Source of the DNA: PVC group bacterium
Lineage (GTDB): Bacteria; Omnitrophota; Gorgyraeia; B26-G9
Length of the DNA: 64,000 bases
NCBI GenBank assembly: GCA_024231215.1
Contig: JAAEQR010000195.1
Location: 226,246 to 290,245, forward strand
Direction of reading: 5' to 3'
The notes below the pieces were generated by a model. That model made no database searches and was not told where the DNA came from. It saw nothing but the letters and a program-made list of their open reading frames with translations. Position numbers and translations under genes: made by a program. Each line of letters begins with the position of its first letter. Position 1 is the first letter of the stretch. Shown piece by piece: positions 4,303 to 52,350 of this stretch.

Positions 4303-7300
4303 ATGTATTTTAAAAAGTTAGAACTTTATGGTTTTAAATCTTTTGTAGATAAAACCACCCTTCTTTTTGAGCCTGGAGTAACTGCAATTGTTGGTCCTAA
4401 TGGTACCGGTAAAAGTAATATTTCCGATGCAATAAAATGGGTTTTGGGCGAACAAAGTGTAAAATCCATGCGCGGCAGTAAAATGGAAGATGTTATTTTT
4501 AACGGTACAGAGTTGCGTCCGCCGGTAAATATGGCTGAAGTTTCACTTACGCTGTCTAATGAAGGAAGACACCTGCCTATAGATTACGATGAGATCAGGA
4601 TTACCCGAAGGCTTTATCGTTCCGGTGAAAGTGAATATCTTCTGAATAAAACTCCGGTAAGATTAAGAGACATTAATGAGCTTTTAATGGGGACAGGGAT
4701 TGGGACTGAATCTTATTCTCTTTTAGAACAGGGCCGAATAGACTCGATAATAAGTTCTAAGCCGGAAGATCGCCGCATTATTTTTGAAGAAGCAAGCGGG
4801 ATTACTAAATTCAAAAAGAAAAAAAATGAAGCTATGCGTAAGCTGCAGCAGACAGAAGAGAATTTGCTGCGCGTTAATGATATTGTAGTTGAAGTTAACA
4901 GGCAATTAAATTCCATCCAAAGACAGGTGAATAAAGCCAGGCGTTACCAAGAACATTTCCAAGAGCTTAAAAACCTGGATACACAGTATACCTACCGTGA
5001 ATATAATATTTTAAAATCCGAGCAGGATCAGTTCCTGGGAGAAGAGAATCAATGTCGTGGTTCTCAGGAGCAGATAGAAAATGAACTGGTAAGCATTTCG
5101 CAGCTTTTTGAAGATGTGAAGAATACGCTTACTCAGGTAGAGAATGATTATAAAGATCTGACTAATAAGGTCATGATTGCCGAGACACAGATTGAAAAAA
5201 ATACTGATCGTGTGAACTTAAATAAAGAGCGTATTGATGAGTTTACTCAGAGAGTAAACGATGCAGTAATAGATATTGGAAATACAAATAAAAAGATAGA
5301 AGAAGTAGAGCAGCAGCGCACTCTTCTTAATGAACGCATTGTTTCTTTTCAGGAAGAAAAGCATATTAAGGAAAATCAATTAAACCTGAAGAAAACAAGT
5401 CTTGAAGAGATTGAAAACCAGATTAGAGAAGCTAAGGATACCATTGCTCTGGCTAAAGAGAAAGCTGTAAATCTTTTATCTGAACATGCCCAGCTGAAAA
5501 ATAATCTCGCAAAACTTTCTGCTAACATTCATAACGCAAATGCGCGTCTGACTAGATTGCGTCAGGAAAAAAGCAAGACAGAAGAAGAATTTAATGAGAT
5601 AAATACATCTTTAGAGGGAAAAATAAATGAGCTCAATCAGCTGAAGGGGCGGGTTGATGATGAAGAAAAGAAAGAATCATCGTTACGTTCTTCTCAGGAA
5701 TTACTTGCCGGAGGCATAAAAAATCTGGAAGAAGAAATTCAGAAGTCTAAAGAGGGATTAATTGCTAAACAATCACAGCTTATTGTTCTTGAAGATTTAA
5801 GCAAAACTTACGAAGGGTTTTCTAACGCGGTAAAGGCATTGATGCCTCAAAAAGAAGAATTCCCCGAACAGTTTGAAGGGGTGCATGATGTCTTAGTGAA
5901 CTTGATCGAGGTCAGTTCCGGATATGAAATGTGCGTGGAAAACGCATTAACTGATTATTTGCAGGCTGTGGTGGTAGAAGATAGTCAGGCAATGTTGCGT
6001 TTGCGGGATTTTCTTGATTCTCAGAATATCGGCAGGGTGCGAATTATTGCTCTGGATACTATTCCGGTGGATTTAACTTCTCAGGTTTCTGGTGATGATT
6101 TACAAGCAATAACAAATTTTGTTAATTGTGAGGATAAATATAAAGGCTTAATGGCTTATCTTTTGAGGAATACGTTTCTAGTTTCTAAAGATAAGATCGA
6201 GACTGTCTCAGGAGAAAATTTTACAGCAACCCCAGAGTTGGTAGAATTTACTTATCGTGGTTTTAATTTGAATAGTGTTGAGATAATCGGTGATTTTAAT
6301 AATTGGCAGCCGTCTTCTGATACAACATTGGAACTTACCGATCCGGGGATATGGACGCGAAAGGTTTTTTTAAGCCCGGGGCATTATCGTTATAAATTTA
6401 TTGTTGATGGACAATGGATAACTGATCCGGAAAATAATAATATAGAGACAGATATTATCGGTAATTCAAATTCTATTTTAGAAATAACAGAAGCCGTAGA
6501 GAAAAAAGAAATAAAGTCGAATATATTTGATCAATTAGATGTCTCAACGCAGTTGGTAACAACCGAAGGTGAAATTTATACCCGGACTGAACTTGTAACC
6601 AAACCGACAAATGAACACAGCCTTGGTTTAATTTCTCAAAAGGCCCAGATGAGGCAACTAAAGGAAGATTGTATATATATTGATCAAAGAATTGAAGAGC
6701 TGGCGAATAAGGAAGCTTTAGAAAGTGAACAGCTGGAGAAAGTAGAAGCAGAACTGTCTCAGTTAACTGAAATATTGCATCATGAGAAAGTTATTTTTGC
6801 AAATAAAGACTCAGAAAGAGTGAGTATTGAATCTGCAAAAAAGAAACTGGATGATGAGTTATCCGTGGTTAATCTAGAAATAGAAGAAACAACTCTGGAT
6901 CTAAACGAATTAGTTGAAAAAGAAAAACAAAGCAAAGAATCCCTAGAAGCAGTTGAACAGCAGATTGCTCAGAATGAGCAGGAGATGAATTGTTCTCAGG
7001 ATCTAATATCTGATAAGACTCGGGAACGGGAAGATTTGCTGGTGGTTATTGCAGAGAAGAAAACGGAATTTTCTTTAGTTAATGAACAAGAGGCATCATT
7101 GAATCAGAACATGATCATGCTAACTGAAAATTATGACCAGATGCGTAATAACGTAGAAGAGCTGACCCGGCAGAAAGAAGAATCAACCCGACGGATCGGG
7201 GAACTGTCTGAGCAGGTAGTTAATTTAGAGCAGAATACAACGGTGCTGGGCGAAGAAAAACAGCAAATTGACACACAACTAGAACAGACAACGATGCAGC

Positions 7301-8214
7301 GCAGTAGATTGCTTGAAGAATTTGAATCGATGCAAATACAAATCAGAGAAAAAGAAAATAATTTAAACCAGATTAAAAATAGAATTAGAGATATGGATGT
7401 TAGAAATGTAGAACTAAAATTCAAGCTGGATGCGTTAATAAATACTAGTTATCAATCTTATAAGATTGATTTGGCCTCTCTGGTTATGGAGCTTCCGGAA
7501 GATATCGATTGGGATCAGCAAAAAGAACAAATTGATGTTTTAAAGCAGAAGGTTGATCGGCTAGGTTCGGTTAATTTAGCGGCAGTAGAAGAAGAGGAAG
7601 AATTAAGGGAGCGTGCGGAATTTTTAAATAGCCAGAGGGAAGATTTAGTTGCGGCAAAAGAGACTTTGATGCAGGCTATACGAAAGATAAACAGAACGAC
7701 TAAGACTCTTTTTCTGGATACTTTTGAACAGGCGAAGGTGGCTTTCCGGGAATATTATAAGCTGCTTTTTAGCGGTGGGGATGCTCAGCTATACTTATCG
7801 GAAGATAAAGATGTTTTAGAGAGCGGTGTTGAGATAGTTGTTCGCCCTCCGGGAAAACGCTTACAAAGCATAACTCTACTTTCCGGAGGAGAAAAAACAC
7901 TAACTGCTATCGCATTACTATTCGCGGTATTTAAAATAAAACCTACTCCGTTTTGTGTGCTTGATGAAATGGATGCGCCTTTGGATGAATCAAATATTGA
8001 TCGTTTCACCCGGGTTTTGCAGGAGTTTTTGAAGAATTCCCAATTTATTATTATCACTCATAATAAGAAGACCATTGGTATGGCAGATGTTATGTATGGA
8101 GTGACTATGGGAGAACCCGGCATTTCCAAATTGGTATCGGTAAAATTCAGTGAGTATAAAGATGCTCCTGTTGCCGAGCCTGTCGAAGAAGAGCCTGTTG
8201 CGTCTGCTGCATAA
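4303..8214 (+). CDS. smc: chromosome segregation protein SMC carrying an inserted CBM48/AMPK-beta-like glycogen-binding domain in the hinge
   Basis: N-terminal Walker A GPNGTGKSN, long coiled coils, a hinge, and a C-terminal ABC signature LSGGEKTLTAIALLFA with Walker B. It is 1303 aa against about 1180 for canonical SMC. The extra ~110 aa lie at nt 6214-6549. Confidence 0.9.
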   Translation: MYFKKLELYGFKSFVDKTTLLFEPGVTAIVGPNGTGKSNISDAIKWVLGEQSVKSMRGSKMEDVIFNGTELRPPVNMAEVSLTLSNEGRHLPIDYDEIRITRRLYRSGESEYLLNKTPVRLRDINELLMGTGIGTESYSLLEQGRIDSIISSKPEDRRIIFEEASGITKFKKKKNEAMRKLQQTEENLLRVNDIVVEVNRQLNSIQRQVNKARRYQEHFQELKNLDTQYTYREYNILKSEQDQFLGEENQCRGSQEQIENELVSISQLFEDVKNTLTQVENDYKDLTNKVMIAETQIEKNTDRVNLNKERIDEFTQRVNDAVIDIGNTNKKIEEVEQQRTLLNERIVSFQEEKHIKENQLNLKKTSLEEIENQIREAKDTIALAKEKAVNLLSEHAQLKNNLAKLSANIHNANARLTRLRQEKSKTEEEFNEINTSLEGKINELNQLKGRVDDEEKKESSLRSSQELLAGGIKNLEEEIQKSKEGLIAKQSQLIVLEDLSKTYEGFSNAVKALMPQKEEFPEQFEGVHDVLVNLIEVSSGYEMCVENALTDYLQAVVVEDSQAMLRLRDFLDSQNIGRVRIIALDTIPVDLTSQVSGDDLQAITNFVNCEDKYKGLMAYLLRNTFLVSKDKIETVSGENFTATPELVEFTYRGFNLNSVEIIGDFNNWQPSSDTTLELTDPGIWTRKVFLSPGHYRYKFIVDGQWITDPENNNIETDIIGNSNSILEITEAVEKKEIKSNIFDQLDVSTQLVTTEGEIYTRTELVTKPTNEHSLGLISQKAQMRQLKEDCIYIDQRIEELANKEALESEQLEKVEAELSQLTEILHHEKVIFANKDSERVSIESAKKKLDDELSVVNLEIEETTLDLNELVEKEKQSKESLEAVEQQIAQNEQEMNCSQDLISDKTREREDLLVVIAEKKTEFSLVNEQEASLNQNMIMLTENYDQMRNNVEELTRQKEESTRRIGELSEQVVNLEQNTTVLGEEKQQIDTQLEQTTMQRSRLLEEFESMQIQIREKENNLNQIKNRIRDMDVRNVELKFKLDALINTSYQSYKIDLASLVMELPEDIDWDQQKEQIDVLKQKVDRLGSVNLAAVEEEEELRERAEFLNSQREDLVAAKETLMQAIRKINRTTKTLFLDTFEQAKVAFREYYKLLFSGGDAQLYLSEDKDVLESGVEIVVRPPGKRLQSITLLSGGEKTLTAIALLFAVFKIKPTPFCVLDEMDAPLDESNIDRFTRVLQEFLKNSQFIIITHNKKTIGMADVMYGVTMGEPGISKLVSVKFSEYKDAPVAEPVEEEPVASAA

Positions 8215-8245
8215 TTAACGTCTTCTCGCTAAGTTCGCGGGGGTG

Positions 8246-9430
8246 TTATTCTAATTCTTTACTAAACATGCATACTCTGTTGCGGCCGGTGTTTTTAGCT
8301 GCGTAAAGCGCTTTATCTGCGCAGGCAATGAGGGAGTTTTTTTCCTGAGCGTCTTGGGGAAAGCTGGCTACGCCGATACTTATACCTATCTTTCTTTTTG
8401 TTTTTGTCTTGGGATCATAGAAATATGTTGCAGATACGGTTTTTCTTATTCTCTCAGCTGAAGAGTAGGCTTTTTCTTTAAAAGTTTCAGGGAGAATAAT
8501 TGCGAATTCTTCTCCTCCGTAGCGGGCGACAAGATCAACCTCGCGGCATGATTTTCTTAATATCCCAGCTAATTCCTGCAGGAGTTTATCCCCGGTAAGA
8601 TGCCCGAAATTATCATTAAAGCTTTTAAAAAAATCAAGATCTGCCATAAGCAGACTTACATGCCGGTTAAAGCGGGCGGCTCTTTTAATTTCTTCTTTTA
8701 ATTGATGCTGAAAATATCCATAATTCCAGAGATTAGTTAGTCGGTCCGTATTAGATAGAACTAATGTTCGTTCAAATTCCTGCGAGTTTTCGATCGCCAA
8801 TCCAGCTTGATTGGCAAACATGTTCAGTTTCCAGATATCTTCTTTAGTGATCGTTTTCTTTGAATAGAAATTATCAACTAACATTACTCCGACTACACGA
8901 TCTTTTGCTAGTAACGGTACGGTAACAAAATAATTCATATTGAAAAGAGATACTACCAGGTCATTGCTTTTTATTGTTTTTTTTGTTTTTGAGTCAATTA
9001 TATTAAAAGGATGGCGTTTTTTTACGGTTTGAGATAGAATCCCAGTTGATGTTTCCAGGGGGAGTTGAATCTTTGTTACCAGATTATTAAGATGTGAGTC
9101 AGGACGGCGGCCGAATTCTTCGTAGGCACTAACCAGTTCATCCAGGGTTGTTTGTTCTTTCTCCAAGTGCTTCCAGATGCTATGCGCATCTTCTCCTGAA
9201 TCCGGGCCGATACCCATGCGTCCTTCCAGGGTATTGTTTGTTTCATTTACCAGAAATACCATAGCTCGGTTAAACCCAAGGCCTTCATGCGCAGTAACGC
9301 TGGTAAGAATGATGTAAAGGATTTCATCCAATCTCAATGTAGAACGCATGGCATTGCCGATCTCATATAGCATAAGGAGCTCGGATTGATGTTTTTGGAT
9401 AGTTTTCGGGATATTTTTCTTATTAAGCAT
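8246..9430 (-). CDS. GAF domain-containing diguanylate cyclase (GGDEF)
   Basis: C-terminal GGDEF domain with an intact RYGGEEF motif and an N-terminal GAF-like domain. Confidence 0.85.
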   Translation of the reverse strand: MLNKKNIPKTIQKHQSELLMLYEIGNAMRSTLRLDEILYIILTSVTAHEGLGFNRAMVFLVNETNNTLEGRMGIGPDSGEDAHSIWKHLEKEQTTLDELVSAYEEFGRRPDSHLNNLVTKIQLPLETSTGILSQTVKKRHPFNIIDSKTKKTIKSNDLVVSLFNMNYFVTVPLLAKDRVVGVMLVDNFYSKKTITKEDIWKLNMFANQAGLAIENSQEFERTLVLSNTDRLTNLWNYGYFQHQLKEEIKRAARFNRHVSLLMADLDFFKSFNDNFGHLTGDKLLQELAGILRKSCREVDLVARYGGEEFAIILPETFKEKAYSSAERIRKTVSATYFYDPKTKTKRKIGISIGVASFPQDAQEKNSLIACADKALYAAKNTGRNRVCMFSKELE

Positions 9431-9848
9431 AATCTTATTGTATAGTTATGTGATTTTTTGTCAACAGAGAAATGAAAATTTACCTGTTTTTTGAGGGGGC
9501 ATTCGTTTTTAGTAAATTTGCTTGACATTTTTAGCTATTCGTTGTATTAAAGATGTATACAGTATATGTAGTTAAAACAATTAAACGTTTATAAAAATAT
9601 AAAATCCCATAAATAACCATAAATACATATAATATTTAATAAACATCTTAACCTCATACAATCCCTAGTAAAGTCCTAAATTTGTACGGAAATATTTACT
9701 CAAGTAGTTAACTGATAGTGATTTCATAACTTATATTATTTTAAGCTTTATTCATCTGCTTAAAAAGATTGCATATATTATATAGAATCTGTCTTAGAGC
9801 GGGTAGAGGGTAATCAGAATAAAGCTGCAAAAATTTTAATGAGGTTTT

Positions 9849-26909: not shown

Positions 26910-28190
26910 ATGCTAGAATATATTGAGATTAACAAAGACTTCGAAGAAGCCTTTGATTTAATAGAAAATTCAAATGAATGTGTGTTTGTCACCGGAAAAG
27001 CAGGAACCGGGAAATCCACATTTCTGAGATATTTAAAGAAAAATACCGGCAAAAACGCGGTTGTCTTAGCTCCTACCGGTTTGGCGGCAATTAATGTGCG
27101 TGGCCAGACGATTCATTCTTTTTTTAAATTCCCCCCTAAATTTATTGATAAACAAGATATTAAAAAACTACGACGCAAGAAGTTGTTTAAAAAAATCGAG
27201 ATGGTTATTATTGACGAAATTTCTATGGTTCGTGCGGACCTTATGGATGGGATTGATCATGCCTTGCGTCTTAACCGTGGTTTTGATGTGCCGTTTGGTG
27301 GAGCTCAGGTAGTAATGTTCGGAGATCTGTTCCAGCTTCCCCCGGTTATTCGGGGCAGAGAATTAAATGAATTTTTTGCCCAAAACTATGGGAGCGCTTA
27401 TTTTTTTAGTGCTAAGGTTTTTAGTGAAATATCTTTGCGTTATGTGGAGTTAAGTAAAATATATCGTCAAAGTGATAGTGAGTTTATAAATTTGTTGGAT
27501 AGGGTGAGGAATAAAAATTTACTGCCCCAGGATTTGAATTTTTTGAATCAACGTGTTGTAAGACAGAAAAATATTGATGATGAGGACGTTGCGATTACTT
27601 TGACAACTACAAACGCGATTGCGGCAAAAGTAAATGAGTATCATCTGAATAAATTAGAGGCTAATGAGTATCAATATCAGGCAGAGATTTCTGATAAATT
27701 CGGGGAATCGTTTTTTCCTACAGAGTTTGATTTGAAATTGAAAGTGGGTGCACAGGTAATGATGCTCATGAATGATCCGGAAAGACGCTGGGTAAACGGA
27801 AGTATCGGTGTGATTATGGAATTATCAGGTGATTTTATTAAAGTCCAGATAGACGAAGATATGTATGAGATTCCCCGTATGACTTGGCATAACATTAAAT
27901 ATCGTTTTGATAAAGAGCAGGATGCGGTTATTGAAGAAGTAGAAGGTACCTTTATGCAATACCCGATAAAGCTTGCCTGGGCAATAACCATCCATAAAAG
28001 TCAGGGTAAGACATTTGATCGGGTGGTTATTAATCTGGGGGCTGGGGCCTTTACCCACGGCCAGGTATATGTGGCTTTGAGTCGGTGTAGCTCATTAGAA
28101 GGGATATCACTTACCCGTCCGGTATGGCCCAGAGATGTTATTTTTGATAAGAAAATCTATGAATTTAGAGAAAGAGTTAAAAACTGCTAG
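26910..28190 (+). CDS. PIF1-like (RecD-like) AAA ATPase / DNA helicase
   Basis: Walker A GKAGTGKST and Walker B IIDEISMV, with PIF1 family conservation throughout. Confidence 0.8.
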   Translation: MLEYIEINKDFEEAFDLIENSNECVFVTGKAGTGKSTFLRYLKKNTGKNAVVLAPTGLAAINVRGQTIHSFFKFPPKFIDKQDIKKLRRKKLFKKIEMVIIDEISMVRADLMDGIDHALRLNRGFDVPFGGAQVVMFGDLFQLPPVIRGRELNEFFAQNYGSAYFFSAKVFSEISLRYVELSKIYRQSDSEFINLLDRVRNKNLLPQDLNFLNQRVVRQKNIDDEDVAITLTTTNAIAAKVNEYHLNKLEANEYQYQAEISDKFGESFFPTEFDLKLKVGAQVMMLMNDPERRWVNGSIGVIMELSGDFIKVQIDEDMYEIPRMTWHNIKYRFDKEQDAVIEEVEGTFMQYPIKLAWAITIHKSQGKTFDRVVINLGAGAFTHGQVYVALSRCSSLEGISLTRPVWPRDVIFDKKIYEFRERVKNC

Positions 28191-28286
28191 TTTCTATCCT
28201 GTTTGAGTGGTAAAACAACAGATTTTGTGATATACTTCTCATACCTTTTTCATATTATAAATTATTCTTTATGGGAGATGTGTTTA

Positions 28287-29342
28287 ATGCGTAATTTTAA
28301 AGTTTTTTGTTTAATTTCTGCAATACTGATTATCTTTAGCTCTAATGTTATCGCCTATAACCAGAGCAAATTCGCCCCTTCTGACGGAAAAACCATGGTA
28401 ATGATAGGACAGGATACCGGTAATATTAGTGATTTTGTCGGACAGGTTGGTCATACCCCTGCGGGGACAATGGCGTATACTTCAATCCAGAATTTAGAAG
28501 GTCTTTATAGCGCGAGCAATCACGGAGCAGGCTGGAACCATGCTCAGGGCCTTGCGGATACTTATATTAATAGCGTGATCCAGGTGGGGTTATATATGGT
28601 CGATGGCTTAGATGAGGTAAATGCCGGGACTTATGATAATAATATTCACAGTTTGGGATCATGGGCCAAAAGTGTAGACAGGCCTGTATATTTACGTATT
28701 GGTTATGAATTTGACGGAGATCATAATCACTATGATCCAGCTAAATACCAGCAGGCATATCGTCGCATTGTAGATACATTAAATGCAGATGGAGTAGATA
28801 ATATTGCTTATGTGTGGCATTCCCAGGCCATGAATGTTGATAAATCAATTGAAGATTGGTATCCGGGCGACGAATATGTTGATTGGTGTGGAGTTAGTTA
28901 TTTTAGGCAGGCAATGGGTTATTATAACGAGATGCTTGATTTTTCTGAACTGCATGATAAGCCAATAATGCTGGCTGAATCTACTCCGGTTAGATTGCAT
29001 ACGTATCAGGGACAAATGGTGTGGGATAATTTTTTTGCGCAATATTTTGAATTTATAGAAGAAAATGGAATTGAAGCATTATGCTATATTAATTGTGACT
29101 GGGATGCTATGCCGATGTGGATGGATTATGGATGGGGCGATTCACGCATTCAGGAAAGTGAATATTTAAAACAAAAGTGGCTAGCAGAGATGAGTAAAGA
29201 ACGTTATCTGCAAGCATCTAGTGACTTGTATTCTGAATTAGGGTATAATACTATACCAGAACCTTCTTCAGTGATGTTTTTAGGAAGTGGAATATTAATG
29301 TTATGGGGAATATTGAAGAACGGAAAAAGGGAGGTATTATGA
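28287..29342 (+). CDS. secreted glycoside hydrolase family 26-like protein with a PEP-CTERM sorting tail
   Basis: Signal peptide, the GH26-like WYPGDEYVDWCGVSYF, and a C-terminus IPEPSS + TM + KNGKRE that looks like PEP-CTERM. Confidence 0.65.
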   Translation: MRNFKVFCLISAILIIFSSNVIAYNQSKFAPSDGKTMVMIGQDTGNISDFVGQVGHTPAGTMAYTSIQNLEGLYSASNHGAGWNHAQGLADTYINSVIQVGLYMVDGLDEVNAGTYDNNIHSLGSWAKSVDRPVYLRIGYEFDGDHNHYDPAKYQQAYRRIVDTLNADGVDNIAYVWHSQAMNVDKSIEDWYPGDEYVDWCGVSYFRQAMGYYNEMLDFSELHDKPIMLAESTPVRLHTYQGQMVWDNFFAQYFEFIEENGIEALCYINCDWDAMPMWMDYGWGDSRIQESEYLKQKWLAEMSKERYLQASSDLYSELGYNTIPEPSSVMFLGSGILMLWGILKNGKREVL

Positions 29343-31048: not shown

Positions 31049-31957
31049 TTATCCGTAGCCGAATTGTTTAGAAAAAGAGCGGGTTCGGTTTTCCCCTTCT
31101 GTCTTGGCTTTCTTGAGCGCCGCTTGTGTTTGCGCGACCAGGTCATTTTTATCAACTGTATCCTTGCCGAAAGCGCTTACTCCGCAGCTTATAGTTACTT
31201 GCATAGTGCATATTTGTTTTCCGATTTCTGAGGTTGCCCAAATCTGACGCACTCTATCGGTTGAGAAAAAGGCATCTCTTAAATCTGCTTCCGGGAATAA
31301 TACTCCGAATTGATCCTGACCAAAACGGCATACTTCATCTACGGTTCTGATGTTTGCCTGGACTGTTTCAGCGATCTTTTTTAATAGGCAATTTCCGGTT
31401 TGATGACCAAACATGTTTGTGACCATTTCAAATTTATCTACGTCAATTATCGCAAAGCTTAAATTGCGGTTATATCTTTTACTGCGTGCGCATTCTTTTT
31501 GTAGTCGGTGTTGAAAATATTCCTGATTAAATGCTTTAGTAACATTATCATGGAAAGGGTGGTTGAGTACTTCGTCGAGTTTTTCTTTGCGTTTTAACAG
31601 GTTTTTAATCCTCATAAGTAATTCACGGTTATTGGTTCCTTTGGGCAGGAAGTCTGCGGCTCCCATTTCCAGCCCGAGAAGTTTATCATCTATGGTTCTA
31701 ATGATGCTGTAGAAAAGCACGGGTAGGCTCAAGAATCGTTTATCTTTACGGATGCGTTTGCATACTTCAAACCCGTCAGTATCCGGGAGTAAGATATCCA
31801 GAATAACCAGATCCGGCACTTCTTCACTGAGCAGTTCAAATGTTTCTTTTCCCGTTGCGGTATGCTTAACCTCATAGTTGTTCTCTTCCAGGACTATTTT
31901 TAGTTTCTGGAAATCATCTAAATTGTCTTCAACTATTAAAATCTTGTGTTTTTTCAT
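31049..31957 (-). CDS. response regulator receiver fused to a degenerate GGDEF domain (GQDQF in place of GG[DE]EF)
   Basis: N-terminal receiver (ILIVEDN .. DLVILDILLPD). In the GGDEF domain the signature reads RFGQDQF, and an RxxD I-site-like RTVD lies upstream. The start was chosen at MKKHKIL. Confidence 0.8.
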   Translation of the reverse strand: MKKHKILIVEDNLDDFQKLKIVLEENNYEVKHTATGKETFELLSEEVPDLVILDILLPDTDGFEVCKRIRKDKRFLSLPVLFYSIIRTIDDKLLGLEMGAADFLPKGTNNRELLMRIKNLLKRKEKLDEVLNHPFHDNVTKAFNQEYFQHRLQKECARSKRYNRNLSFAIIDVDKFEMVTNMFGHQTGNCLLKKIAETVQANIRTVDEVCRFGQDQFGVLFPEADLRDAFFSTDRVRQIWATSEIGKQICTMQVTISCGVSAFGKDTVDKNDLVAQTQAALKKAKTEGENRTRSFSKQFGYG

Positions 31958-32107
31958 AATTATATATATAAGCCTCCTAATACAAATATACCTGAAAATC
32001 GACAAATATACAAATGATATATAGTATATAAACTATTCCTTGCGTTGCAGATCTGCTTGTAATATGCTAAAATATGAATTTAACAAGGCTTATTTGAAAG
32101 GGTAAAT

Positions 32108-33803: not shown

Positions 33804-34634
33804 ATGAAGAGATGGAATAGTATTTCTTTATTATTAATAGTATTGTTGTTGATTAACGGATGTGATAACAACCCGTTTGCCCGGGAGCGGTATCAGGTAA
33901 TAAAGGGGGTAGACGGAGCACTTTACCGGTTAGATAAAAAAACCGGGGAAATAAAAATAGTAAAAGTTAGCAACTATATAGAGGAAGAGCCGGAAATAGA
34001 TCCTAGTCTTAATGGAGCAGAGATTGAGGATACTGAGTTGGAGATTCCTAAGGATTGGGGAGAGCATCAGGTTCGTGGAAAGAATCTACGAATAAAATTA
34101 ATAACCTATTGGAAGTTAGGAAAGCTGCATTATGAATTTGAAGTTTATCCTTTTTCATCTTTAAAGAGGATGTTCCAGAGAAAGGAAAATGACGCATATT
34201 ATAGACTTAGGAAGCATGGTTTTTTGTTGAAGCTTGTCGATGAAAACAATTTTGTAATTTCTGAAATATTTGTAAACTTAAATGATATGAAGAAAGTTCC
34301 TGATCTAAAAGGCAAAACAAATAGTTTGTTTTTGAAGTCAAGTCTTGAGCTTGGAATGCGTGAATACAGACAGATTGAAAATTATAACTTTGACACAAAT
34401 CTGGATTGGATAGTGATTCCTAATTATAAGTTTCCGGATAAAGTTAAAGATTTGATACAGACTTATAATTGTTATGGAGAGGTTGATCCTAAGGTAGATA
34501 AAGATGCTCCTGTGGGCTCAAAATACTGGTGGATAACTTATCCTGAACGTAATAAAGTGTACTTTTCATCGGAAGAGGAACTTCTGAGAAGCTACGAAAA
34601 AACCATTCTGAATATCCTAGAAACAAATAAATAG
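33804..34634 (+). CDS. hypothetical lipoprotein
   Basis: Signal peptide with lipobox LINGC. Confidence 0.55.
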   Translation: MKRWNSISLLLIVLLLINGCDNNPFARERYQVIKGVDGALYRLDKKTGEIKIVKVSNYIEEEPEIDPSLNGAEIEDTELEIPKDWGEHQVRGKNLRIKLITYWKLGKLHYEFEVYPFSSLKRMFQRKENDAYYRLRKHGFLLKLVDENNFVISEIFVNLNDMKKVPDLKGKTNSLFLKSSLELGMREYRQIENYNFDTNLDWIVIPNYKFPDKVKDLIQTYNCYGEVDPKVDKDAPVGSKYWWITYPERNKVYFSSEEELLRSYEKTILNILETNK

Positions 34635-42807: not shown

Positions 42808-43039
42808 GGGTGGCCCTTGCGCCCGCCCGTAACCATTTAATCTTGACCGGAATTCCAGATAGTGATAAATTGTTCTTTAGTCGTAGGTATAATTTTATAT
42901 AAAGTCCGGGTGCAAAAATAATGGGGTAAATCTTCTTTGAACATTGACCCCATAGCACCGCGGACATAATTCACAGACGTACTAATGGCCTATAATTTAC
43001 ATGAATGTAAATTATCTGTTCATTAAGGGGGAGTTGTAT

Positions 43040-45514
43040 ATGGCCAGACAATTAAAAAGTAAAGTTGGCAGTAAGTGGGTTACAATCCATAAAGATATGA
43101 CCAAAGAGGGTATCCAGACATCTTTTCAAAATAACCGGGTCTGTACGCTTGGCAAAGATCAATATACCTCAACGCAGTATGACAATTTCCTATCTATGGC
43201 GATTGCTATCCGGGATCGAATCATGGAGCGGTGGATACTTACTCAGCAGAAATACCATAAGGAAAATCGCAAACGGGTTTATTACCTTTCTCTTGAATTC
43301 CTGATCGGTCGTTTGATGGGCAATAATATGATTAATCTTGGCTTAATTGAAGAAGCGACAAAGGCTATGCAAGAGATGGGATTTGATATCGAAGAGATCA
43401 GAGATCAAGAGCATGATGCGGGGTTGGGTAATGGTGGCTTAGGCAGGCTTGCGGCATGTTTTCTTGATTCTATGGCTACACTTGGAATTCCGGCACATGG
43501 TTATGGGATAAGATATGATTATGGTATTTTTAAACAGAAGATTATTAACGGTCATCAGGTGGAGCAACCGGATGAGTGGCTGAGGCATGGTAATCCTTGG
43601 GAGATCGCGCGGCCGGAGTATACCGTAGAAATAAAATTATACGGGCGTACTCAGATGTACCATGACTATAAAGGAAAACTTTGTGTTAGATGGTCGGACA
43701 CACAAAATGTACAAGCAGTACCATATGATATGCCTATTCCCGGGTATGGAAATGATATTGTGAATACACTTCGTCTTTGGTCGGCAAGAAGCACCGAAGA
43801 ATTTGACTTTGAATATTTCAATGATGGCGATTATGAAAAGGCGGTATATTCAAAGATGTTTTCGGAGAATATTTCCAAGGTTCTTTATCCTAACGATAAT
43901 TCCAGCCAGGGGCGGGAGCTTAGACTAAAGCAGGAGTATTTTTTTACAGCAGCTTCCATTGCCGATATCATTCGTAGATTTAAAGAAGAGAATCTGTATT
44001 TAAAAAATTTACCGGATAAGGTGACAATCCAGCTTAATGATACACATCCTGCTTTGGCTATTCCTGAACTTATGCGGATTCTTATAGATAAAGAACATAT
44101 GGATTGGGATGATGCTTGGGATATCGTTGTGCAGTGTTTTGCCTATACAAATCATACGGTTATGCCGGAAGCCTTGGAATGCTGGTCTGTAGCGCTTTTT
44201 GGAAAAGTTCTGCCGCGGCATTTGCAGATAATTTATGAGATTAACGCGCGTTTTTTGCGTGAGGTGGCAAATGAATTTCCCGGGGATACTGATCGGCTTA
44301 CAAGAATGTCTATTATAGAGGAAGGAACGCCTAAAAGGATACGCATGGCGTTTTTGTCTATAGTGGGTAGTCATTCTCTCAACGGAGTTTCCGAGTTGCA
44401 TTCAGAGCTTTTAAAGACACAGTTATTTAAAGATTTTTATGAGTTTTGTCCGGAGAAGTTTAATAATAAGACTAATGGGATTACCCAAAGGCGATGGCTG
44501 CTCAAATCTAATTCTCGATTATCATCACTTATTAGTGAAGCGATTGGAAATAAATGGATTACGAATTTGCATGAGATGAAAAAATTGCTTCCATTAAAAG
44601 ATGATCGCTCTTTTAGAAATAAATGGAGGAGTATAAAGGCAGCAAATAAAGAGCAGTTTGCAGAGTATATTTATAAAACTAATGGCGTAATTATAAATCC
44701 TCATTCTATATTTGATGTGCAGATCAAGAGAATTCATGAATATAAACGCCAGCTTCTTTTTGGGCTTTATATTATTGCACAGTATTTGAAGCTAAAAAGG
44801 GATCCTAAAAGCGTGGATGTACCGCGTACTTGTATTTTTGGAGGTAAAGCTGCGCCGGGATATTATATGGCGAAACTGACCATTAAATTTATTAATAATA
44901 TTGCTAACGTTATTAATCGTGATAAATCGATTAAGGATAAATTACGTGTGGTGTTCTTGGAAAATTACCGGGTATCTTTGGCGGAAAAGATTTTTCCGGC
45001 TAGCGATCTCTCTGAACAGATATCTACAGCGGGTACGGAAGCTTCTGGTACCGGATGTATGAAATTCATGGTAAACGGAGCATTAACGATCGGAACTTTA
45101 GACGGAGCAAATATTGAGATGGCTAGGGAAGTAGGTAAAGAGAATATGTTCATCTTTGGATTGCAGGCAAAGCAGGTAGAACAGTTAAAGATTGAAGGGT
45201 ATAGCCCGTGTGACTATATAGAGAAAGCTCCGATGCTAAAGGAAATAATACATCTGATTCAAAGTAATTTCTTTTCTCCGGTTGAACAAGGTATTTTTGA
45301 ACCGATTGTGCGTAATTTGTTAGATATAGACCCATTTTTTGTCTGTGCTGATTTTGATTCTTATTGTGCTATGCAGGATCAAGTATCGTCGGTATATAGA
45401 AATACCGAAGAATGGACAAAGCGGTCTATTATTAATGTGGCTAAATCCGGAAAGTTTTCCAGTGACAGAACAATTCACCAGTATGCGCAGGAGATCTGGG
45501 GGCTTGATCTGTAA
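43040..45514 (+). CDS. glgP: glycogen/alpha-glucan phosphorylase
   Basis: GT35 family pattern with the PLP-binding EASGTGCMKFMVNGALTIGTLDGANIE region. The RBS AAGGGGGAG precedes the ATG at 43040. Confidence 0.9.
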   Translation: MARQLKSKVGSKWVTIHKDMTKEGIQTSFQNNRVCTLGKDQYTSTQYDNFLSMAIAIRDRIMERWILTQQKYHKENRKRVYYLSLEFLIGRLMGNNMINLGLIEEATKAMQEMGFDIEEIRDQEHDAGLGNGGLGRLAACFLDSMATLGIPAHGYGIRYDYGIFKQKIINGHQVEQPDEWLRHGNPWEIARPEYTVEIKLYGRTQMYHDYKGKLCVRWSDTQNVQAVPYDMPIPGYGNDIVNTLRLWSARSTEEFDFEYFNDGDYEKAVYSKMFSENISKVLYPNDNSSQGRELRLKQEYFFTAASIADIIRRFKEENLYLKNLPDKVTIQLNDTHPALAIPELMRILIDKEHMDWDDAWDIVVQCFAYTNHTVMPEALECWSVALFGKVLPRHLQIIYEINARFLREVANEFPGDTDRLTRMSIIEEGTPKRIRMAFLSIVGSHSLNGVSELHSELLKTQLFKDFYEFCPEKFNNKTNGITQRRWLLKSNSRLSSLISEAIGNKWITNLHEMKKLLPLKDDRSFRNKWRSIKAANKEQFAEYIYKTNGVIINPHSIFDVQIKRIHEYKRQLLFGLYIIAQYLKLKRDPKSVDVPRTCIFGGKAAPGYYMAKLTIKFINNIANVINRDKSIKDKLRVVFLENYRVSLAEKIFPASDLSEQISTAGTEASGTGCMKFMVNGALTIGTLDGANIEMAREVGKENMFIFGLQAKQVEQLKIEGYSPCDYIEKAPMLKEIIHLIQSNFFSPVEQGIFEPIVRNLLDIDPFFVCADFDSYCAMQDQVSSVYRNTEEWTKRSIINVAKSGKFSSDRTIHQYAQEIWGLDL

Positions 45515-48030: not shown

Positions 48031-48402
48031 ATGCATGAGATGTCAATTGCTTCCGCACTGATGGATCAGATAATGGAGACAGCCAAACTTAATAATCTGG
48101 TAAAGGTTGAAGAGGTTGAAATTCAGGCTGGGTTATTGAAGCAGGTGGTGCCGGATGTTATGCAGGCGGCTTTTGAAGCGGTGATTAGCGGGACAATTGT
48201 CGAAGGAGCGCGGCTTAAAATAATTGAGGTTAAGGCAGAAGCTCGTTGTCTGAGCTGTGGGCAGGTGTTTGAGCCTAAGGTGGATAATTTTTTATGTTCT
48301 GTGTGTAATAAGGCAGATGTGGAAATTATTAAAGGTAATGAGATTATTCTTAAATCATTAACTGGTAAAAACCTGGAAGAGGAAGATAAAAATGAAAGTT
48401 AA
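48031..48402 (+). CDS. hypA: hydrogenase nickel incorporation protein HypA
   Basis: MHEMSIA N-terminus, and a zinc site CLSCG ... CSVCN. Confidence 0.85.
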   Translation: MHEMSIASALMDQIMETAKLNNLVKVEEVEIQAGLLKQVVPDVMQAAFEAVISGTIVEGARLKIIEVKAEARCLSCGQVFEPKVDNFLCSVCNKADVEIIKGNEIILKSLTGKNLEEEDKNES

Positions 48403-49075
48403 TGTAATAAAAAACGTATTACAAGCCAATGATATAATTGCGGCAAAGAACAGGAAAGTATTTAAAGAAGCCGGATTGTTGGGAATAAATATAATTAGTT
48501 CGCCGGGAAGTGGAAAAACTACGCTGCTTGAAAAAACAATACCCACGCTAATGCCAGAGCAAAAGTCGATTGTACTGGTGGGAGATCTGGAGACAACTCG
48601 CGATGCCGATAGGGTAGCGCCGTATGCCGAAGAAGTGGTGCAGATTAACACAGGGATGAGCTGTCACCTTTACGCGAATCAGATTGCTGAATCTTTAACC
48701 GAGCTTGAATTAAATAAAGCTGATTTTTTGTTTATTGAGAATGTTGGGAATATGGTTTGTCCGGGAGAGTTTGATTTAGGGGAGAATGTTAAAGTTATCT
48801 TGTTGAGTATTCCGGAAGGGGATGATAAGGTAGCTAAATATCCAACTATTTTCCGGGCGGCGGATATGGTTTTATTAACCAAGATTGACTTGTTGGGAGT
48901 GCTTAATTTTGATCTAGATCGGGTGATGGAGGATTTGCGCAAACTCAATGAGAATGTACCGGTAATTAAGATGTCTTCGTTAGCAGGTGAGGGTATGGAG
49001 GAGTGGCTTGGCTGGCTGAAAGAACAGAGGAATAAATCTATCGGTAATCAGGCAAAATTCATCACACCGGAGTGA
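48392..49075 (+). CDS. hypB: hydrogenase nickel incorporation GTPase HypB
   Basis: P-loop SSPGSGKTTLLE and the CH-motif region. It overlaps the hypA end. Confidence 0.85.
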   Translation: MKVNVIKNVLQANDIIAAKNRKVFKEAGLLGINIISSPGSGKTTLLEKTIPTLMPEQKSIVLVGDLETTRDADRVAPYAEEVVQINTGMSCHLYANQIAESLTELELNKADFLFIENVGNMVCPGEFDLGENVKVILLSIPEGDDKVAKYPTIFRAADMVLLTKIDLLGVLNFDLDRVMEDLRKLNENVPVIKMSSLAGEGMEEWLGWLKEQRNKSIGNQAKFITPE

Positions 49076-49109
49076 TTCTTTTCTTACTAGGGGGAAATAA
49101 AAAAAACAC

Positions 49110-49137
49110 TTGCAAACTTTAGAATTAGTGATATACT
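49110..49137 (+). promoter_or_regulatory. candidate promoter TTGCAA-16-TATACT for the hox operon
   Basis: The hexamers are read directly from the sequence. Confidence 0.4.
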
Positions 49138-49154
49138 TACTTTAATAAGGTTAA

Positions 49155-49172
49155 TTGTTAAAAATTTCACGA
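49155..49172 (+). promoter_or_regulatory. candidate Rex operator TTGTTAA-AAAT-TTCACGA
   Basis: It matches the Rex box consensus TTGT[GT]AA-N4-TT[CA]ACAA in 16 of 18 positions. It lies between the candidate promoter and the hoxF start, and rex is encoded 1.2 kb upstream. Confidence 0.45.
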
Positions 49173-49200
49173 TTAAATCTAACGAAAAAGGGTAGAGCTG

Positions 49201-51012
49201 ATGGATAATAAGTTAGAACAGGCAGTAAAGCAGATTTGTGACGAGTGTGGAAATGACCGTACGAGAATAATGGACATTGTTATTGCTTTGCAAAAAAGCC
49301 AGGGTTGTGTGAGCAGCCAAGCCATGGACTTGATTGCCAAGCAGGTAAATGCACATCGTGTAGAAGTAGAAGGGGTTGTTTCTTTTTACGCTTTCCTTTC
49401 CAAAGATCCTAAAGGAAAAGTAGTGATCCGGGTTTGTACGGATGTTGTTGATCGGATGAAAGGTGTAAATGAAGTCGGACAGGCATTTCAAGCAGAACTT
49501 GGTATTGGATTAGGCGAGACTACAGAGGATGGCAATATTACGCTTGAACATACCCCTTGTATTGGGATGTGTGACCAGGCTCCGGCGGCTTTGATTAATG
49601 ATGAAGTATTTACTAATTTATCTGAGGACAAGGCAAAAGCTATTGTCCAGGCATTGAAAAAAGATGCTGATCCTAAAAAAATATCCATAGAGCTAGGTGA
49701 TGGAAATAATGCGAATGAACTAGTTAAATCGGAAGTTAAAAATAATATTTGCAAAAAAGGCGAAATTATTTTTGCTGATAATGAGTCGGGAGCTGGCTTG
49801 AAAAAAGCGTTAGAATTAGCGCCGGCTGATGTTATTAAGGAAATTAAAGAGTCTAAATTAAGAGGCCGCGGTGGTGCAGGATTTCCCACAGGACTTAAGT
49901 GGGATTTTGCTAGCAAGGCTGAAGGCGATCAGAAATATGTGCTTTGTAATGCAGATGAAGGAGAGCCGGGAACTTTTAAAGACAGAGTGCTTCTTACTGA
50001 GCGTTATGATTTGTTATTTGAAGGTATGACTATTACCGGTTATGCGATCGGTGCTAATGCCGGGGTGATTTATTTGCGCGGTGAATATGCTTATTTACGT
50101 GCTTTTCTGGAAAATAAGCTTGTAGAACGTAGAGATAAGAATTTATTAGGTAAAAATGTGCTTGGCAAGGATGGGTTTGATTTTGATATCCGAATCCAGA
50201 TGGGAGCCGGGGCATATGTATGCGGAGAAGAAACAGCGCTTATTAGTTCCTGCGAAGGCATGCGCGGTGATCCGAAAAATCGTCCTCCGTTTCCAGCTCA
50301 AAAAGGATATCTTGGTTGTCCGACTGTAGTGAATAACGTTGAAACATTATCCATTGTGACCAGAATAATGGAAAAGGGTGCAGCCTGGTTTACGGGAATT
50401 GGAACTGAGGCTAGTGCTGGAACAAAAATTTTAAGTATTTCCGGTGATTGTGAAGCTCCCGGAGTATATGAATTTCCGATTGGTATAAAAATAGAAGACT
50501 TGCTTAAAGAAGTAAAAGCAGAAAATGCGCAGGCAGTTTTGATTGGTGGTCCTGCCGGACAGATAATTAGTGCTACGGAATTTAATAGATATATTTGTTT
50601 TGATGATTTGGCTACGGGTGGTGCGATTGTTATCTTTGGTGCGCAGCGTAATATATTGGAAATCGTTAATGAATATATGGATTTCTTTATTGAAGAGAAC
50701 TGTGGTTATTGCACTCCTTGTCGTGTAGGCAATGTTTTGTTGAAGCAGCGTTTGGAAAAGATAATTTCCGGAAAAGGGGAAAAGGCAGATCTTGATTATT
50801 TGCAGGACTTGGGAGATAGTGTGATTTTGACCAGCCGTTGCGGCTTGGGGCAGACTTCTCCAAATCCGATTCTTACCACCTTGAAGAATTTCCGGTCTTT
50901 ATATGAAGGCTTGATTAAAGTAGAAAAAGATATTATGGAACCGACATTTGATGTTAAGGCTGCACTTAATGATGCAGAAACTGTTGCAGAACGACAATCA
51001 GTAATATATTGA
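49201..51012 (+). CDS. hoxF: NAD(P)-linked diaphorase subunit of a bidirectional [NiFe] hydrogenase (HoxF) with a fused N-terminal NuoE/HoxE-like 2Fe-2S domain
   Basis: An N-terminal thioredoxin-like 2Fe-2S domain (C...C...CxxxC), then a NuoF-like NADH/FMN-binding region (GRGGAGFPTG) and a 4Fe-4S site. Confidence 0.85.
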   Translation: MDNKLEQAVKQICDECGNDRTRIMDIVIALQKSQGCVSSQAMDLIAKQVNAHRVEVEGVVSFYAFLSKDPKGKVVIRVCTDVVDRMKGVNEVGQAFQAELGIGLGETTEDGNITLEHTPCIGMCDQAPAALINDEVFTNLSEDKAKAIVQALKKDADPKKISIELGDGNNANELVKSEVKNNICKKGEIIFADNESGAGLKKALELAPADVIKEIKESKLRGRGGAGFPTGLKWDFASKAEGDQKYVLCNADEGEPGTFKDRVLLTERYDLLFEGMTITGYAIGANAGVIYLRGEYAYLRAFLENKLVERRDKNLLGKNVLGKDGFDFDIRIQMGAGAYVCGEETALISSCEGMRGDPKNRPPFPAQKGYLGCPTVVNNVETLSIVTRIMEKGAAWFTGIGTEASAGTKILSISGDCEAPGVYEFPIGIKIEDLLKEVKAENAQAVLIGGPAGQIISATEFNRYICFDDLATGGAIVIFGAQRNILEIVNEYMDFFIEENCGYCTPCRVGNVLLKQRLEKIISGKGEKADLDYLQDLGDSVILTSRCGLGQTSPNPILTTLKNFRSLYEGLIKVEKDIMEPTFDVKAALNDAETVAERQSVIY

Positions 51013-51038
51013 GGATTCCGGGCATAAAGATAGTGTGG

Positions 51039-51085
51039 TTTACCACACAGTGCCGCGGATATAATTCGCCCTGAAACTTCAGGGC
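51039..51085 (+). promoter_or_regulatory. internal promoter-like TTTACC-16-ATAATT plus a perfect 5'UTR hairpin GCCCTGAA-AC-TTCAGGGC before hoxU
   Basis: Read from the sequence. The block CCGCGGATATAATTC resembles CCGCGGACATAATTC upstream of glgP (42956-42971). Confidence 0.3.
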
Positions 51086-51095
51086 TCATTAAAGG

Positions 51096-51818
51096 ATGAT
51101 TATGGAAAAAACAGTAAAGTTTACGATTGATGGAGTAGAAATAACGGCCAAGGCGGGGCAGACGATTATGCAGGCTGCCGATGAAGCAGGGATTTATATC
51201 CCTCGTTTATGCTACATGAATGAGCTAAAGCCACACGGAAGCTGTCGTGTATGTACAGTAATGGTAAACGGTAACCCTCAGGCTGCTTGTACTCAGCCGG
51301 TTGCCGAAGGTACAGTTGTAAAAAGTGAAACTGAAAAGATTCAGGCTAGTCGCCGGGATATCGTGGATATGCTTTTTGTGGAAGGAAATCATTTTTGCAT
51401 GGTTTGTGAAAAAAGCGGTAATTGCGAACTTCAGGCAATGGCGTATCGTTTGGGTATCTGCGCTCCAAAATATCCTTATCTTTTCCCGAAATTGGATGTC
51501 GATGGTTCTCATCCGGATATTTTTATTGACCGCAATCGTTGTATTTTATGCGGCCGCTGCGTGGAAGCGTCACAGGATATTGACGGTAAAGGCGTGTTCG
51601 AATTTGTCGGACGCGGGCAGGAGAAGAGAGTTGCGGTAAATGCCGAAGCAAAACTTGCAGATACGAATATGGAAGTAACAGATAAGGCAGCGGATGTTTG
51701 TCCGGTAGGTGCAATAATTAAAAAACGTGTAGGGTTCGCTGTTCCTGTAGGAGAGCGGTTATATGATAAGGAACCGATCGGTTCGGATATTGAGAGGAAA
51801 AAAAATGGGAAAACCTAA
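51096..51818 (+). CDS. hoxU: hydrogenase diaphorase Fe-S subunit HoxU (NuoG N-terminal-like)
   Basis: An N-terminal 2Fe-2S ferredoxin-like fold followed by several Cys clusters (CxxCxxxxxC, CILCGRC). Confidence 0.85.
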   Translation: MIMEKTVKFTIDGVEITAKAGQTIMQAADEAGIYIPRLCYMNELKPHGSCRVCTVMVNGNPQAACTQPVAEGTVVKSETEKIQASRRDIVDMLFVEGNHFCMVCEKSGNCELQAMAYRLGICAPKYPYLFPKLDVDGSHPDIFIDRNRCILCGRCVEASQDIDGKGVFEFVGRGQEKRVAVNAEAKLADTNMEVTDKAADVCPVGAIIKKRVGFAVPVGERLYDKEPIGSDIERKKNGKT

Positions 51819-52350
51819 AATTGCTACTGCTTCATTAGCAGGATGTTTCGGATGCCATATGTCTATACTTGATATTGATGATCGTATTCTGAAACTTGTG
51901 GAATTAGTGGATTTTGATAAATCTCCGGTAAATGATATTAAAAAGTTTACGGGAAGATGTTTAGTCGGTTTGATTGAAGGCGGCTGTGCAAATGAAGAAA
52001 ACGTGCATGTGCTTAAGTATTTTCGTGAAAATTGCGATATACTTATTTCTGTTGGGGACTGTGCGATTAATGGTGGTGTGCCGGCAATGCGTAACGGTAT
52101 TCCGCTAAAGGAATGTTTGGAAGAAGCTTATATCAACGGTCCGACGGTGTATAATCCAAGTAAACAGATTCCTAATGATAAAGAAATTCCGCTATGTCTT
52201 GATAAGGTTTATCCTTGTCATCATGTAGTGAAAATAGATTATTATCTGCCGGGTTGTCCACCTTCTGCAGATACTATATGGGAAGCATTGGTGGCATTGT
52301 TAAACGGCAAGCCGCTTGATCTGCCGTATGAATTAATTAAATATGATTAA
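51805..52350 (+). CDS. hoxY: [NiFe] hydrogenase small subunit HoxY
   Basis: MGKPKIATASLAGCFGCHMS proximal-cluster motif and a C-terminal LPGCPP. It overlaps the hoxU end by 14 nt. Confidence 0.85.
   Translation: MGKPKIATASLAGCFGCHMSILDIDDRILKLVELVDFDKSPVNDIKKFTGRCLVGLIEGGCANEENVHVLKYFRENCDILISVGDCAINGGVPAMRNGIPLKECLEEAYINGPTVYNPSKQIPNDKEIPLCLDKVYPCHHVVKIDYYLPGCPPSADTIWEALVALLNGKPLDLPYELIKYD

Follow-up and report, generated by a model that had tools for sequence, protein, structure and literature searches.

An AMPK-beta-type carbohydrate-binding module in the SMC hinge of an Omnitrophota clade, with a possible role in tethering glycogen to the nucleoid

Conservation among SMC hinges is high, and a role for them in DNA binding or gating is under debate. 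The smc gene of a bacterium of the PVC (Planctomycetes–Verrucomicrobia–Chlamydiae) group, assigned to the Omnitrophota, raises the question of what a carbohydrate-binding module (CBM) could be doing in such a place. The gene lies at positions 4303–8214 of a 64,000 nt stretch of contig JAAEQR010000195.1 (assembly GCA_024231215.1), here called the window, which is part of a metagenome-assembled genome (MAG). An earlier note on this DNA had claimed that the hinge of the encoded protein carries an insert resembling the glycogen-binding domain, of the CBM48 type, found in the beta subunits of AMP-activated protein kinase (AMPK). Here, we report that an AMPK-beta-type CBM is present in the SMC hinge of a clade of Omnitrophota and that this clade has also lost the hinge glycines, both of which appear to be new. 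We regard the structural part of this as secure and expect it to surprise those who work on SMC; the function that we propose for the module is predicted from sequence.

The protein is an SMC over its whole length. The single open reading frame (ORF) encodes 1303 aa, as previously stated, and the excess of approximately 110 aa over a canonical SMC was borne out by insert-free relatives, which are 1190–1209 aa long. TIGR02168 (SMC_prok_B) matches the protein at 957.7 bits (cut-off 567.35), in a match that splits in two at aa 628, and the Pfam family SMC_N (PF02463) matches it at 197 bits. A motif scan found Walker A, the Q-loop (EQG, aa 142), the signature motif and Walker B, with the D-loop (DEMDAPLD, aa 1221) and then the H-loop (IIITH, aa 1249) just 3′ of Walker B. 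With the full set of ATPase motifs intact, the protein is predicted to be ATPase-competent. NCBI lists an identical protein, MCP4650759.1 ('AAA family ATPase [PVC group bacterium]'), which is encoded on a 507-kb contig. The parts of the gene are as follows, where pLDDT is the predicted local distance difference test score of the structural model described below.

4303..8214, + strand: smc gene with the CBM insert inside the hinge; single uninterrupted ORF, 1303 aa
4393..4416, + strand: Walker A GPNGTGKS of the N-terminal ATPase head, aa 31–38; motif scan and SMC_N PF02463
5872..6186, + strand: N-terminal hinge part, aa 524–628, ending in the conserved strand LLRNTFLV; PF06470
6187..6243, + strand: linker 1, aa 629–647, standing in for the start of the canonical hinge helix; alignment, pLDDT 64–79
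6244..6492, + strand: AMPK-beta-type CBM48 module, aa 648–730; PF16561, model and Foldseek
6493..6549, + strand: linker 2, aa 731–749; alignment, pLDDT 72–78
6550..6636, + strand: C-terminal hinge strands QLVTTEGEIYTRTELVTKPTNEHSLGLIS, aa 750–778, without the canonical glycine motif; aligned to Thermotoga maritima RIATLDGELISGRGAITGG
7879..7968, + strand: C-terminal head with the signature LSGGE at aa 1193 and Walker B CVLDE at aa 1218; motif scan

The insert lies inside the hinge, as claimed. SMC_hinge (PF06470) matches aa 524–628 at 73 bits, covering profile positions 1–107 of 116, and this N-terminal hinge part aligns to the T. maritima hinge (1GXL) and was modelled at pLDDT 94–98. The canonical order, seen in relatives and in T. 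maritima, is an LLxNTF(I/L)V strand, a helix/loop of approximately 15–30 residues, an (R/K)hVTxxGE strand and a glycine-rich turn. Alignment to the same sequences revealed that the short surface helix/loop has been swapped for linker, CBM and linker in the window SMC. The extra segment extends over approximately aa 629–749 (121 residues, of which 83 are the CBM), and the hinge strand picks up again at QLVTTEGE, aa 750. The insert had previously been placed at aa 638–749, and 6214–6549 does translate to the peptide quoted for it, but the boundaries were off by up to approximately 10 residues. Similarly, the claim that canonical hinge sequence resumes after the insert holds for the strand QLVTTEGE and fails for the glycine block, as GRGAITGG in T. 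maritima corresponds to TRTELVTKP in the window SMC in the hinge alignment.

When searched against Pfam, the whole protein matched AMPK1_CBM (PF16561) over aa 648–730 (E=7e-14, 52.2 bits), and the insert searched by itself scored 57.1 bits (cut-off 26.8). The match to CBM_48 (PF02922) was borderline: the whole protein gave 20.9 bits and the insert by itself 25.8 bits, with the cut-off at 22.4. Another weak, borderline Pfam match was to the pullulanase X25 domain. In a phmmer search of the PDB, the CBMs of AMPK beta1 and beta2 matched at E ~4e-7, and a pullulanase CBM also matched. PF16561 is already listed on these public SMC sequences in automated Pfam tables. No alpha/gamma-subunit interaction domain of AMPK beta was among the Pfam matches to the 1303-aa protein (E up to 1); thus, the protein as a whole is not an AMPK beta homologue and shares only the CBM with it.

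An AlphaFold2 model of aa 486–800, for which 30 homologues with and without the insert had been aligned, had a mean pLDDT of 91.1 and a predicted template-modelling (TM) score of 0.66. In the model, the insert is an all-beta domain (model residues ~160–243, pLDDT 95–98) set apart from the hinge by two low-confidence joining segments (pLDDT 64–79). Foldseek comparison of the model with the PDB returned, for the insert, chain 1Z0M_C, the AMPK beta1 domain, with a TM score of 0.93 and a root-mean-square deviation (rmsd) of 1.1 Å over 85 columns at 30% identity, and 4YEE with TM scores of 0.88–0.89. The hinge part matched 1GXL (target-normalised TM score 0.76–0.80) and 5H69 (E=2e-12). The resemblance to the AMPK-beta/CBM48 domain is thereby upheld by both the family match and the superposition on 1Z0M, and the model shows that a true beta-sandwich of the CBM48 type has been built into a true SMC hinge.

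A full-length search returned 27 further close SMC clusters that were 50–69% identical to the window protein and mostly labelled Omnitrophota. PF16561 is present in 22 of the 27 (1278–1336 aa when complete) and missing from the other five (P0042–45 and P0047), which are the shorter relatives of 1190–1209 aa. Together with the window protein, the 22 clusters make up 23 insert-bearing SMCs, which come from NCBI, JGI, ENA and Logan assemblies of different samples and include four loci in species-representative genomes (L001, L002, L007 and L009). In 23/23 the module is in-frame at the same site, with a length of 82–83 aa, between linkers that vary from 9 to 37 aa (linker 1) and from 15 to 27 aa (linker 2). 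Among the 23, column identity averages 0.60 in the CBM, 0.63 in the hinge and 0.65 in the coiled coil, and falls to 0.27 in linker 1 and 0.29 in linker 2. The GC content of the insert is the same as that of the rest of the gene and is continuous over the junctions. Flanking repeats, which might be a sign of recent mobile insertion, occur at chance level only: a 10-nt exact repeat is found at 6202 and 6753, and approximately 0.5 such pairs are expected per kb.

These data bear on whether the insert is an assembly artefact, or a domain that has been accreted without function and is carried as a neutral passenger, either of which we regard as exceedingly improbable. The metagenomic origin of the window speaks for a chimera. 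However, the presence of the insert in 23 independent assemblies, at one in-frame site, from independent samples and assemblers and in four species-representative genomes, rules this out, and neither the composition at the junctions nor the flanking repeats point to one. A neutral passenger would fit the loss of the insert in at least one lineage (see below), but the CBM is conserved like the rest of the protein while the linkers drift. We conclude that the insert is natural and, judged by its conservation, under selection. The selected insertion of a whole ligand-binding domain shows that this site in the hinge tolerates cargo.

Most of the insert-bearing proteins (P0024–P0041) are named 'AAA family ATPase' by the NCBI pipeline, and most insert-free relatives (P0047, P0053 and others) 'chromosome segregation protein SMC'. 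As the insert has evidently broken the naming rule, genomes with a CBM-bearing SMC can look SMC-less.

The module is narrowly distributed. It was absent from 92/92 other Omnitrophota SMCs retrieved and was found in 4/80 fetched loci, all four from Omnitrophota; the 76 loci from outside the Omnitrophota clade (Verrucomicrobiota, Kiritimatiellales, Sumerlaeota and others), with SMCs of approximately 1230 aa, did not contain it. Orthologue alignment confined the insert to one Omnitrophota SMC clade, in which insert-free close relatives exist. A HMMER scan with the hinge and CBM segment against 1.84 billion cluster representatives, in which an SMC-CBM scoring below approximately 100 bits would be missed, matched 7896 representatives with E≤0.001; P0025 alone among the best 150 of these matches the query through hinge, CBM and hinge. 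A word-index search with the hinge and insert returned CBM matches only and no SMC. When the SMC-borne CBMs were used as a profile, every protein returned was ≤153 aa long, so this search does not amount to a census of SMC-CBM proteins.

The other matches among the best 150 were proteins with 2–18 tandem CBMs. Such AMPK1_CBM repeats occur in a very large number of bacterial proteins (P0001–P0006 and P0144–P0292), for example P0144 (1812 aa, in which 18 stretches matched) and proteins of approximately 480 aa that contain four repeats and a CBM53. Some single-domain relatives of the CBM, such as P0353, have a lipoprotein-like signal; hence, not all of them are cytoplasmic.

Is the modified gene the main smc of its host? 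A common gene order, consisting of an acyl-CoA dehydrogenase gene, etfB, Fer4-etfA, smc and a convergent GAF-GGDEF gene, was found in the window and around the smc genes for P0027 (locus L086, insert-bearing) and P0045 (locus L085, insert-free). The shared neighbourhood makes the three positional orthologues of one housekeeping smc. The partner genes scpA and scpB were not found among the window ORFs and are not linked to smc in L085 or L086. On sequence and context, gene 4303–8214 is the ordinary housekeeping Smc condensin of the host organism.

Neighbour-joining (NJ) trees were built with the insert region removed. A 28-member SMC group was monophyletic in 100% of bootstraps, and within it the insert-bearing proteins never formed a clade without insert-free members. 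P0045 was nested in the P0027 group at 100%, which means that at least this one lineage has secondarily lost the module. For the remaining insert-free lineages, either early branching or additional losses could be the explanation. The root within the 28-member clade shifted when gamma-corrected distances or slow sites were used, and a count of at least two losses, made on a rooted NJ tree, was dropped because of this instability. A candidate CBM remnant in P0045 (EGNSQIEQI, which MAFFT aligned to the last CBM strand) was also rejected, as its local score was reached by 108–447 of 500 shuffles.

The hinge of the same clade differs from others in a second way. A 'GG' after the last hinge strand is present in 1/28 clade members versus 78/92 other Omnitrophota SMCs, and the motif window contains 0.43 glycines on average in the clade versus 2.86 in the others. 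The motif is gone from the whole clade (P0024–P0051), insert-bearing and insert-free members alike. Thus, the clade hinge is remodelled independently of the presence of the CBM. Hirano and Hirano reportedly found in 2002 that the hinge glycines are important for hinge dimerisation in Bacillus subtilis. The missing motif points to a variant form of the hinge and does not call the SMC identity into question, and a natural glycine-less hinge challenges the presumed need for the glycine motif.

Whether the module could still bind sugar was addressed by comparing it with AMPK beta1. The putative ligand residues, with their conservation among the 23 insert-bearing SMCs, are:

6304–6306, + strand: W668, equivalent to AMPK beta1 W100; kept in 23/23
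6394–6396, + strand: K698, equivalent to AMPK beta1 K126; kept in 23/23
6415–6417, + strand: W705, equivalent to AMPK beta1 W133; kept in 22/23
6460–6462, + strand: G720, equivalent to AMPK beta1 G147; kept in 23/23
6469–6471, + strand: N723, equivalent to AMPK beta1 N150; kept in 23/23

N150 is said to be a glycogen-contact residue in the paper that described 1Z0M. The positions matching AMPK L146 and T148 vary among the SMC inserts. In the AMPK beta1 CBM, glycogen binding is lost with W100G or K126Q and reduced with W133L or G147R (PMC6274970), and W99 is the key residue in AMPK beta2 (PMC4650587). As the AMPK glycogen-binding residues have been kept, the module probably still binds glucan. 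The SMC is cytoplasmic, and the ligand would therefore be a cytoplasmic alpha-glucan.

The window also encodes an enzyme that acts on such a polymer:

43001..45514, + strand: glycogen/maltodextrin phosphorylase (context only); PF00343, 1127.9 bits, full length

The earlier mention of a glycogen phosphorylase was correct as to the gene, but this is located 35 kb from smc and is unlinked to it. What the phosphorylase shows is that the cell handles cytoplasmic alpha-glucan. Glycogen synthesis genes have been reported in many Omnitrophota MAGs (PMC8542988).

The SMC is not the only DNA-associated protein with this module. Among the non-SMC proteins most closely related to the insert are ParA/MinD-type ATPases of Planctomycetota (Phycisphaerae, Sedimentisphaerales and Anaerohalosphaeraceae). 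In these proteins (P0007–P0022), which are 400–450 aa long, a deviant Walker A motif (KGGCGKT) is combined with a variable linker and, at the C-terminus, an AMPK1_CBM/CBM48 with 42–49% identity to the SMC insert. The ligand residues are kept in 16/16, with K replaced by R at the K126 position. P0021 was seen on 63 contigs. In loci L081–L084, where the gene is at 8001–9221, the context was uninformative, and neither an adjoining parB nor a clear glycogen gene was found. We found no description of ParA-CBM fusions in the literature; judged by their domains, they could be glycogen-positioning ATPases of Planctomycetota.

The SMC-CBM profile search also matched many stand-alone 'glycogen-binding domain' proteins of 80–150 aa, which are plausible donors of the SMC insert. 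In three further proteins of approximately 150 aa from Logan assemblies (P0356, P0406 and P0407), an XRE-type helix-turn-helix domain (HTH_3, aa 6–60) is followed by AMPK1_CBM (aa 75–147) with the ligand residues kept. These HTH-CBM proteins are possibly glycogen-responsive regulators or DNA–glycogen tethers. As three unrelated DNA-associated chassis (SMC, ParA and HTH) carry the module, there is circumstantial support for a connection between DNA and glycogen.

What, then, might the module do in the hinge? The structure implies one flexibly linked CBM48 per hinge and two per SMC dimer. We propose that the CBM on the Smc hinge tethers glycogen to the SMC-bound nucleoid, a chain of steps to which, taken whole, we give somewhat less than an even chance. 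Each dimer would show two alpha-glucan-binding sites at the tip of the coiled-coil arms. The hinge lies at the end of the SMC rod most distant from the DNA-clamping heads, and from there the CBMs could reach beyond the nucleoid. Many chromosome-loaded SMC complexes would then tether putative glycogen particles multivalently, and the glycogen store would be placed by the segregating chromosome and split between the daughter cells. Storage granules are known to be tethered to the nucleoid by PhaM, PhaF and PhaH, in the case of polyhydroxybutyrate (PHB), and by AlgP, in the case of polyphosphate (PMC13052382), and there is further precedent for such granules (PMC3806658). In the window, a single ORF joins a chromosome-associated SMC and a predicted storage-polymer-binding CBM48, which is a functional analogy to the granule tethers and not a homology.

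Several points weigh against a tether. P0045 keeps smc without the module, which is therefore dispensable, and no glycogen genes are linked to smc in the window or in L085 and L086. The L146 position, as noted above, is not constant. In the model, the sugar-binding face may be exposed or may be docked on the hinge. By analogy with AMPK, where the CBM also docks proteins and regulates, kept sugar residues alone would not imply a tether. A bulky granule at the hinge might disturb hinge–DNA transactions. Finally, the host organisms are uncultivated, and the tether is read from sequence.

The regulatory role of the AMPK domain leads to a second explanation, in which the module senses glycogen. Its occupancy by glycogen or a branched oligosaccharide would change its packing on the hinge and tune hinge opening, hinge–DNA contact or dimer stability, tying chromosome compaction and segregation to carbon status; in a variant, glycogen would sequester the SMC away from DNA. 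The conserved ligand residues are compatible with this, as is the position of the module inside a functionally sensitive domain and not at a free terminus, and the remodelled, glycine-less hinge of the clade may have an unusual and regulatable dimer interface. Carbohydrate weakens the contact between CBM and kinase domain in AMPK (PMC4650587), glycogen inhibits AMPK via the CBM (PMC6274970), and the HTH-CBM fusions look like ligand-responsive regulators. However, insert-free members of the clade have the same glycine-less hinge, so its remodelling is independent of the CBM, and the linkers are long, variable, poorly conserved and of low pLDDT. Long, unconserved linkers favour a loosely tethered module over tight allostery, and we consider sensing unlikely.

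A third explanation does away with carbohydrate binding. The module would be a protein–protein interaction domain that recruits, for example, an enzyme of glycogen metabolism, a protein that works with the SMC complex, or a factor at the membrane or cell pole, or it would supply an extra hinge-dimer contact that makes up for the lost glycine interface. The AMPK beta CBM48 docks on the kinase domain and binds debranching enzyme independently of glycogen (PMC6274970), and both the loss of the hinge glycine motif in the clade and the variable L146 and T148 equivalents speak for this reading. Against it, the glycogen-binding residues are invariant over approximately 50% sequence divergence, a pattern that is difficult to account for if no sugar is bound; clade members that lack the insert do without the module; and flexible linkers speak against a fixed structural role. 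Given the invariant sugar-contact residues, a purely protein-binding role is disfavoured, and it too seems to us an unlikely account.

The tether can be tested in vitro with recombinant protein and two point mutants, and no cultivation is needed. A wider extrapolation, which we regard as doubtful, is that PVC-superphylum bacteria couple glycogen to chromosome-organising ATPases via a fused AMPK-type CBM48, as a hitherto unrecognised means of positioning or partitioning it, using the Smc hinge in a clade of Omnitrophota, the ParA/MinD C-terminus in Planctomycetota and HTH-CBM proteins elsewhere. Glycogen would then be a nucleoid-organised 'organelle', like carboxysomes and PHB and polyphosphate granules, and the SMC would gain a cargo function beyond DNA. 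If the module binds glycogen, the SMC and ParA-CBM fusions together would provide a first molecular handle on the positioning or inheritance of bacterial glycogen.

Other genes in the window are recorded here for completeness. The gene convergent to smc (8246–9430, − strand) encodes a GAF-GGDEF diguanylate cyclase, with approximately 30 nt between the two stop codons. This arrangement is kept in relatives, where the counterparts are at 9643–10827 (L085) and 9974–11158 (L086). A second GGDEF protein, a response regulator, is encoded at 31049–32005 (− strand). A hydrogenase region at 48392–59391 includes genes for a HypB-like GTPase (48392–49075), a NuoF-like flavoprotein with 2Fe-2S and 4Fe-4S domains (49201–51012), the large subunit of a NiFe hydrogenase (52362–53798), HypF (54280–56565), HypD (57004–58101) and HypE (58336–59391), and fits the fermentative, H2-metabolising lifestyle described for Omnitrophota. 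In an odd pairing, a gene for a Pif1-like superfamily 1 helicase (26910–28190) is directly followed by an ORF with a weak GH26 match (28203–29342). A 276-aa ORF at 33804–34634 had no Pfam match at E≤1e-5.

The earlier note had called a CBM in a condensin hinge undescribed, and our searches agree with this: full-text literature searches found no paper that joins SMC with AMPK1_CBM or a carbohydrate-binding module. Literature searches on the positioning of glycogen granules by ParA likewise found nothing relevant, and glycogen does not come up in two recent reviews of how bacteria position cargo and organelles. Should the module bind glycogen, the Omnitrophota protein would be, as far as we know, the first bacterial SMC whose ligand is a polymer other than DNA.

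Among known systems, the closest to the window SMC is the Smc of Smc-ScpAB in B. subtilis and T. maritima (1GXL, 5H69). The two share the order of head, coiled coil, hinge, coiled coil and head, as well as an equivalog-level HMM score, the ATPase motifs, the hinge fold and a chromosomal housekeeping context. They differ in that the window SMC has a 121-residue linker-CBM48-linker in place of a helix/loop and lacks the hinge glycine motif. The module itself is like the AMPK beta CBM (PF16561; 1Z0M, 2F15, 4YEE), to which it is approximately 30% identical, with an rmsd of 1.1–1.5 Å over approximately 85 residues and the W/K/W/G/N set kept. However, it is embedded in another domain by two linkers and lies outside any kinase scaffold, whereas the AMPK module is in the N-terminal region of its protein, and its L146 and T148 equivalents are not conserved.

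The plant proteins PTST1, PTST2 and PTST3, which consist of a coiled coil and a CBM48, take part in starch granule initiation together with MFP1 and MRC, which are also coiled-coil proteins. Like the window SMC, where this is predicted only, PTST is a long coiled-coil protein in which a single CBM48 links alpha-glucan to a subcellular scaffold. Unlike in the window SMC, the PTST coiled coil is unrelated to that of SMC, there is no ATPase, the CBM is C-terminal and the protein acts in plastids; to our knowledge, PTST does not ride on DNA. The proposed logic of the window SMC, with a granule-binding and a chromosome-associated part in one polypeptide, is the one followed by PhaM, PhaF, PhaH and AlgP. 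These differ from it in being small and unrelated in sequence, and in binding DNA non-specifically by histone-like or helix-hairpin-helix domains. The granules held by these tethers are distributed over the nucleoid and passed on together with it (PMC13052382); no glycogen tether, and none involving an SMC, is listed in that review.

Finally, ParA/MinD-family ATPases use the nucleoid as a matrix for non-DNA cargo, as McdA-McdB does for carboxysomes (PMC11407121, in which glycogen is not mentioned). The ParA-CBM fusions described here suggest glycogen as a nucleoid-positioned cargo in Planctomycetota. The known ParA/MinD cargo systems belong to a different class of ATPase from the window SMC and rely on a separate adaptor, where the window SMC has a fused, putatively cargo-binding domain.

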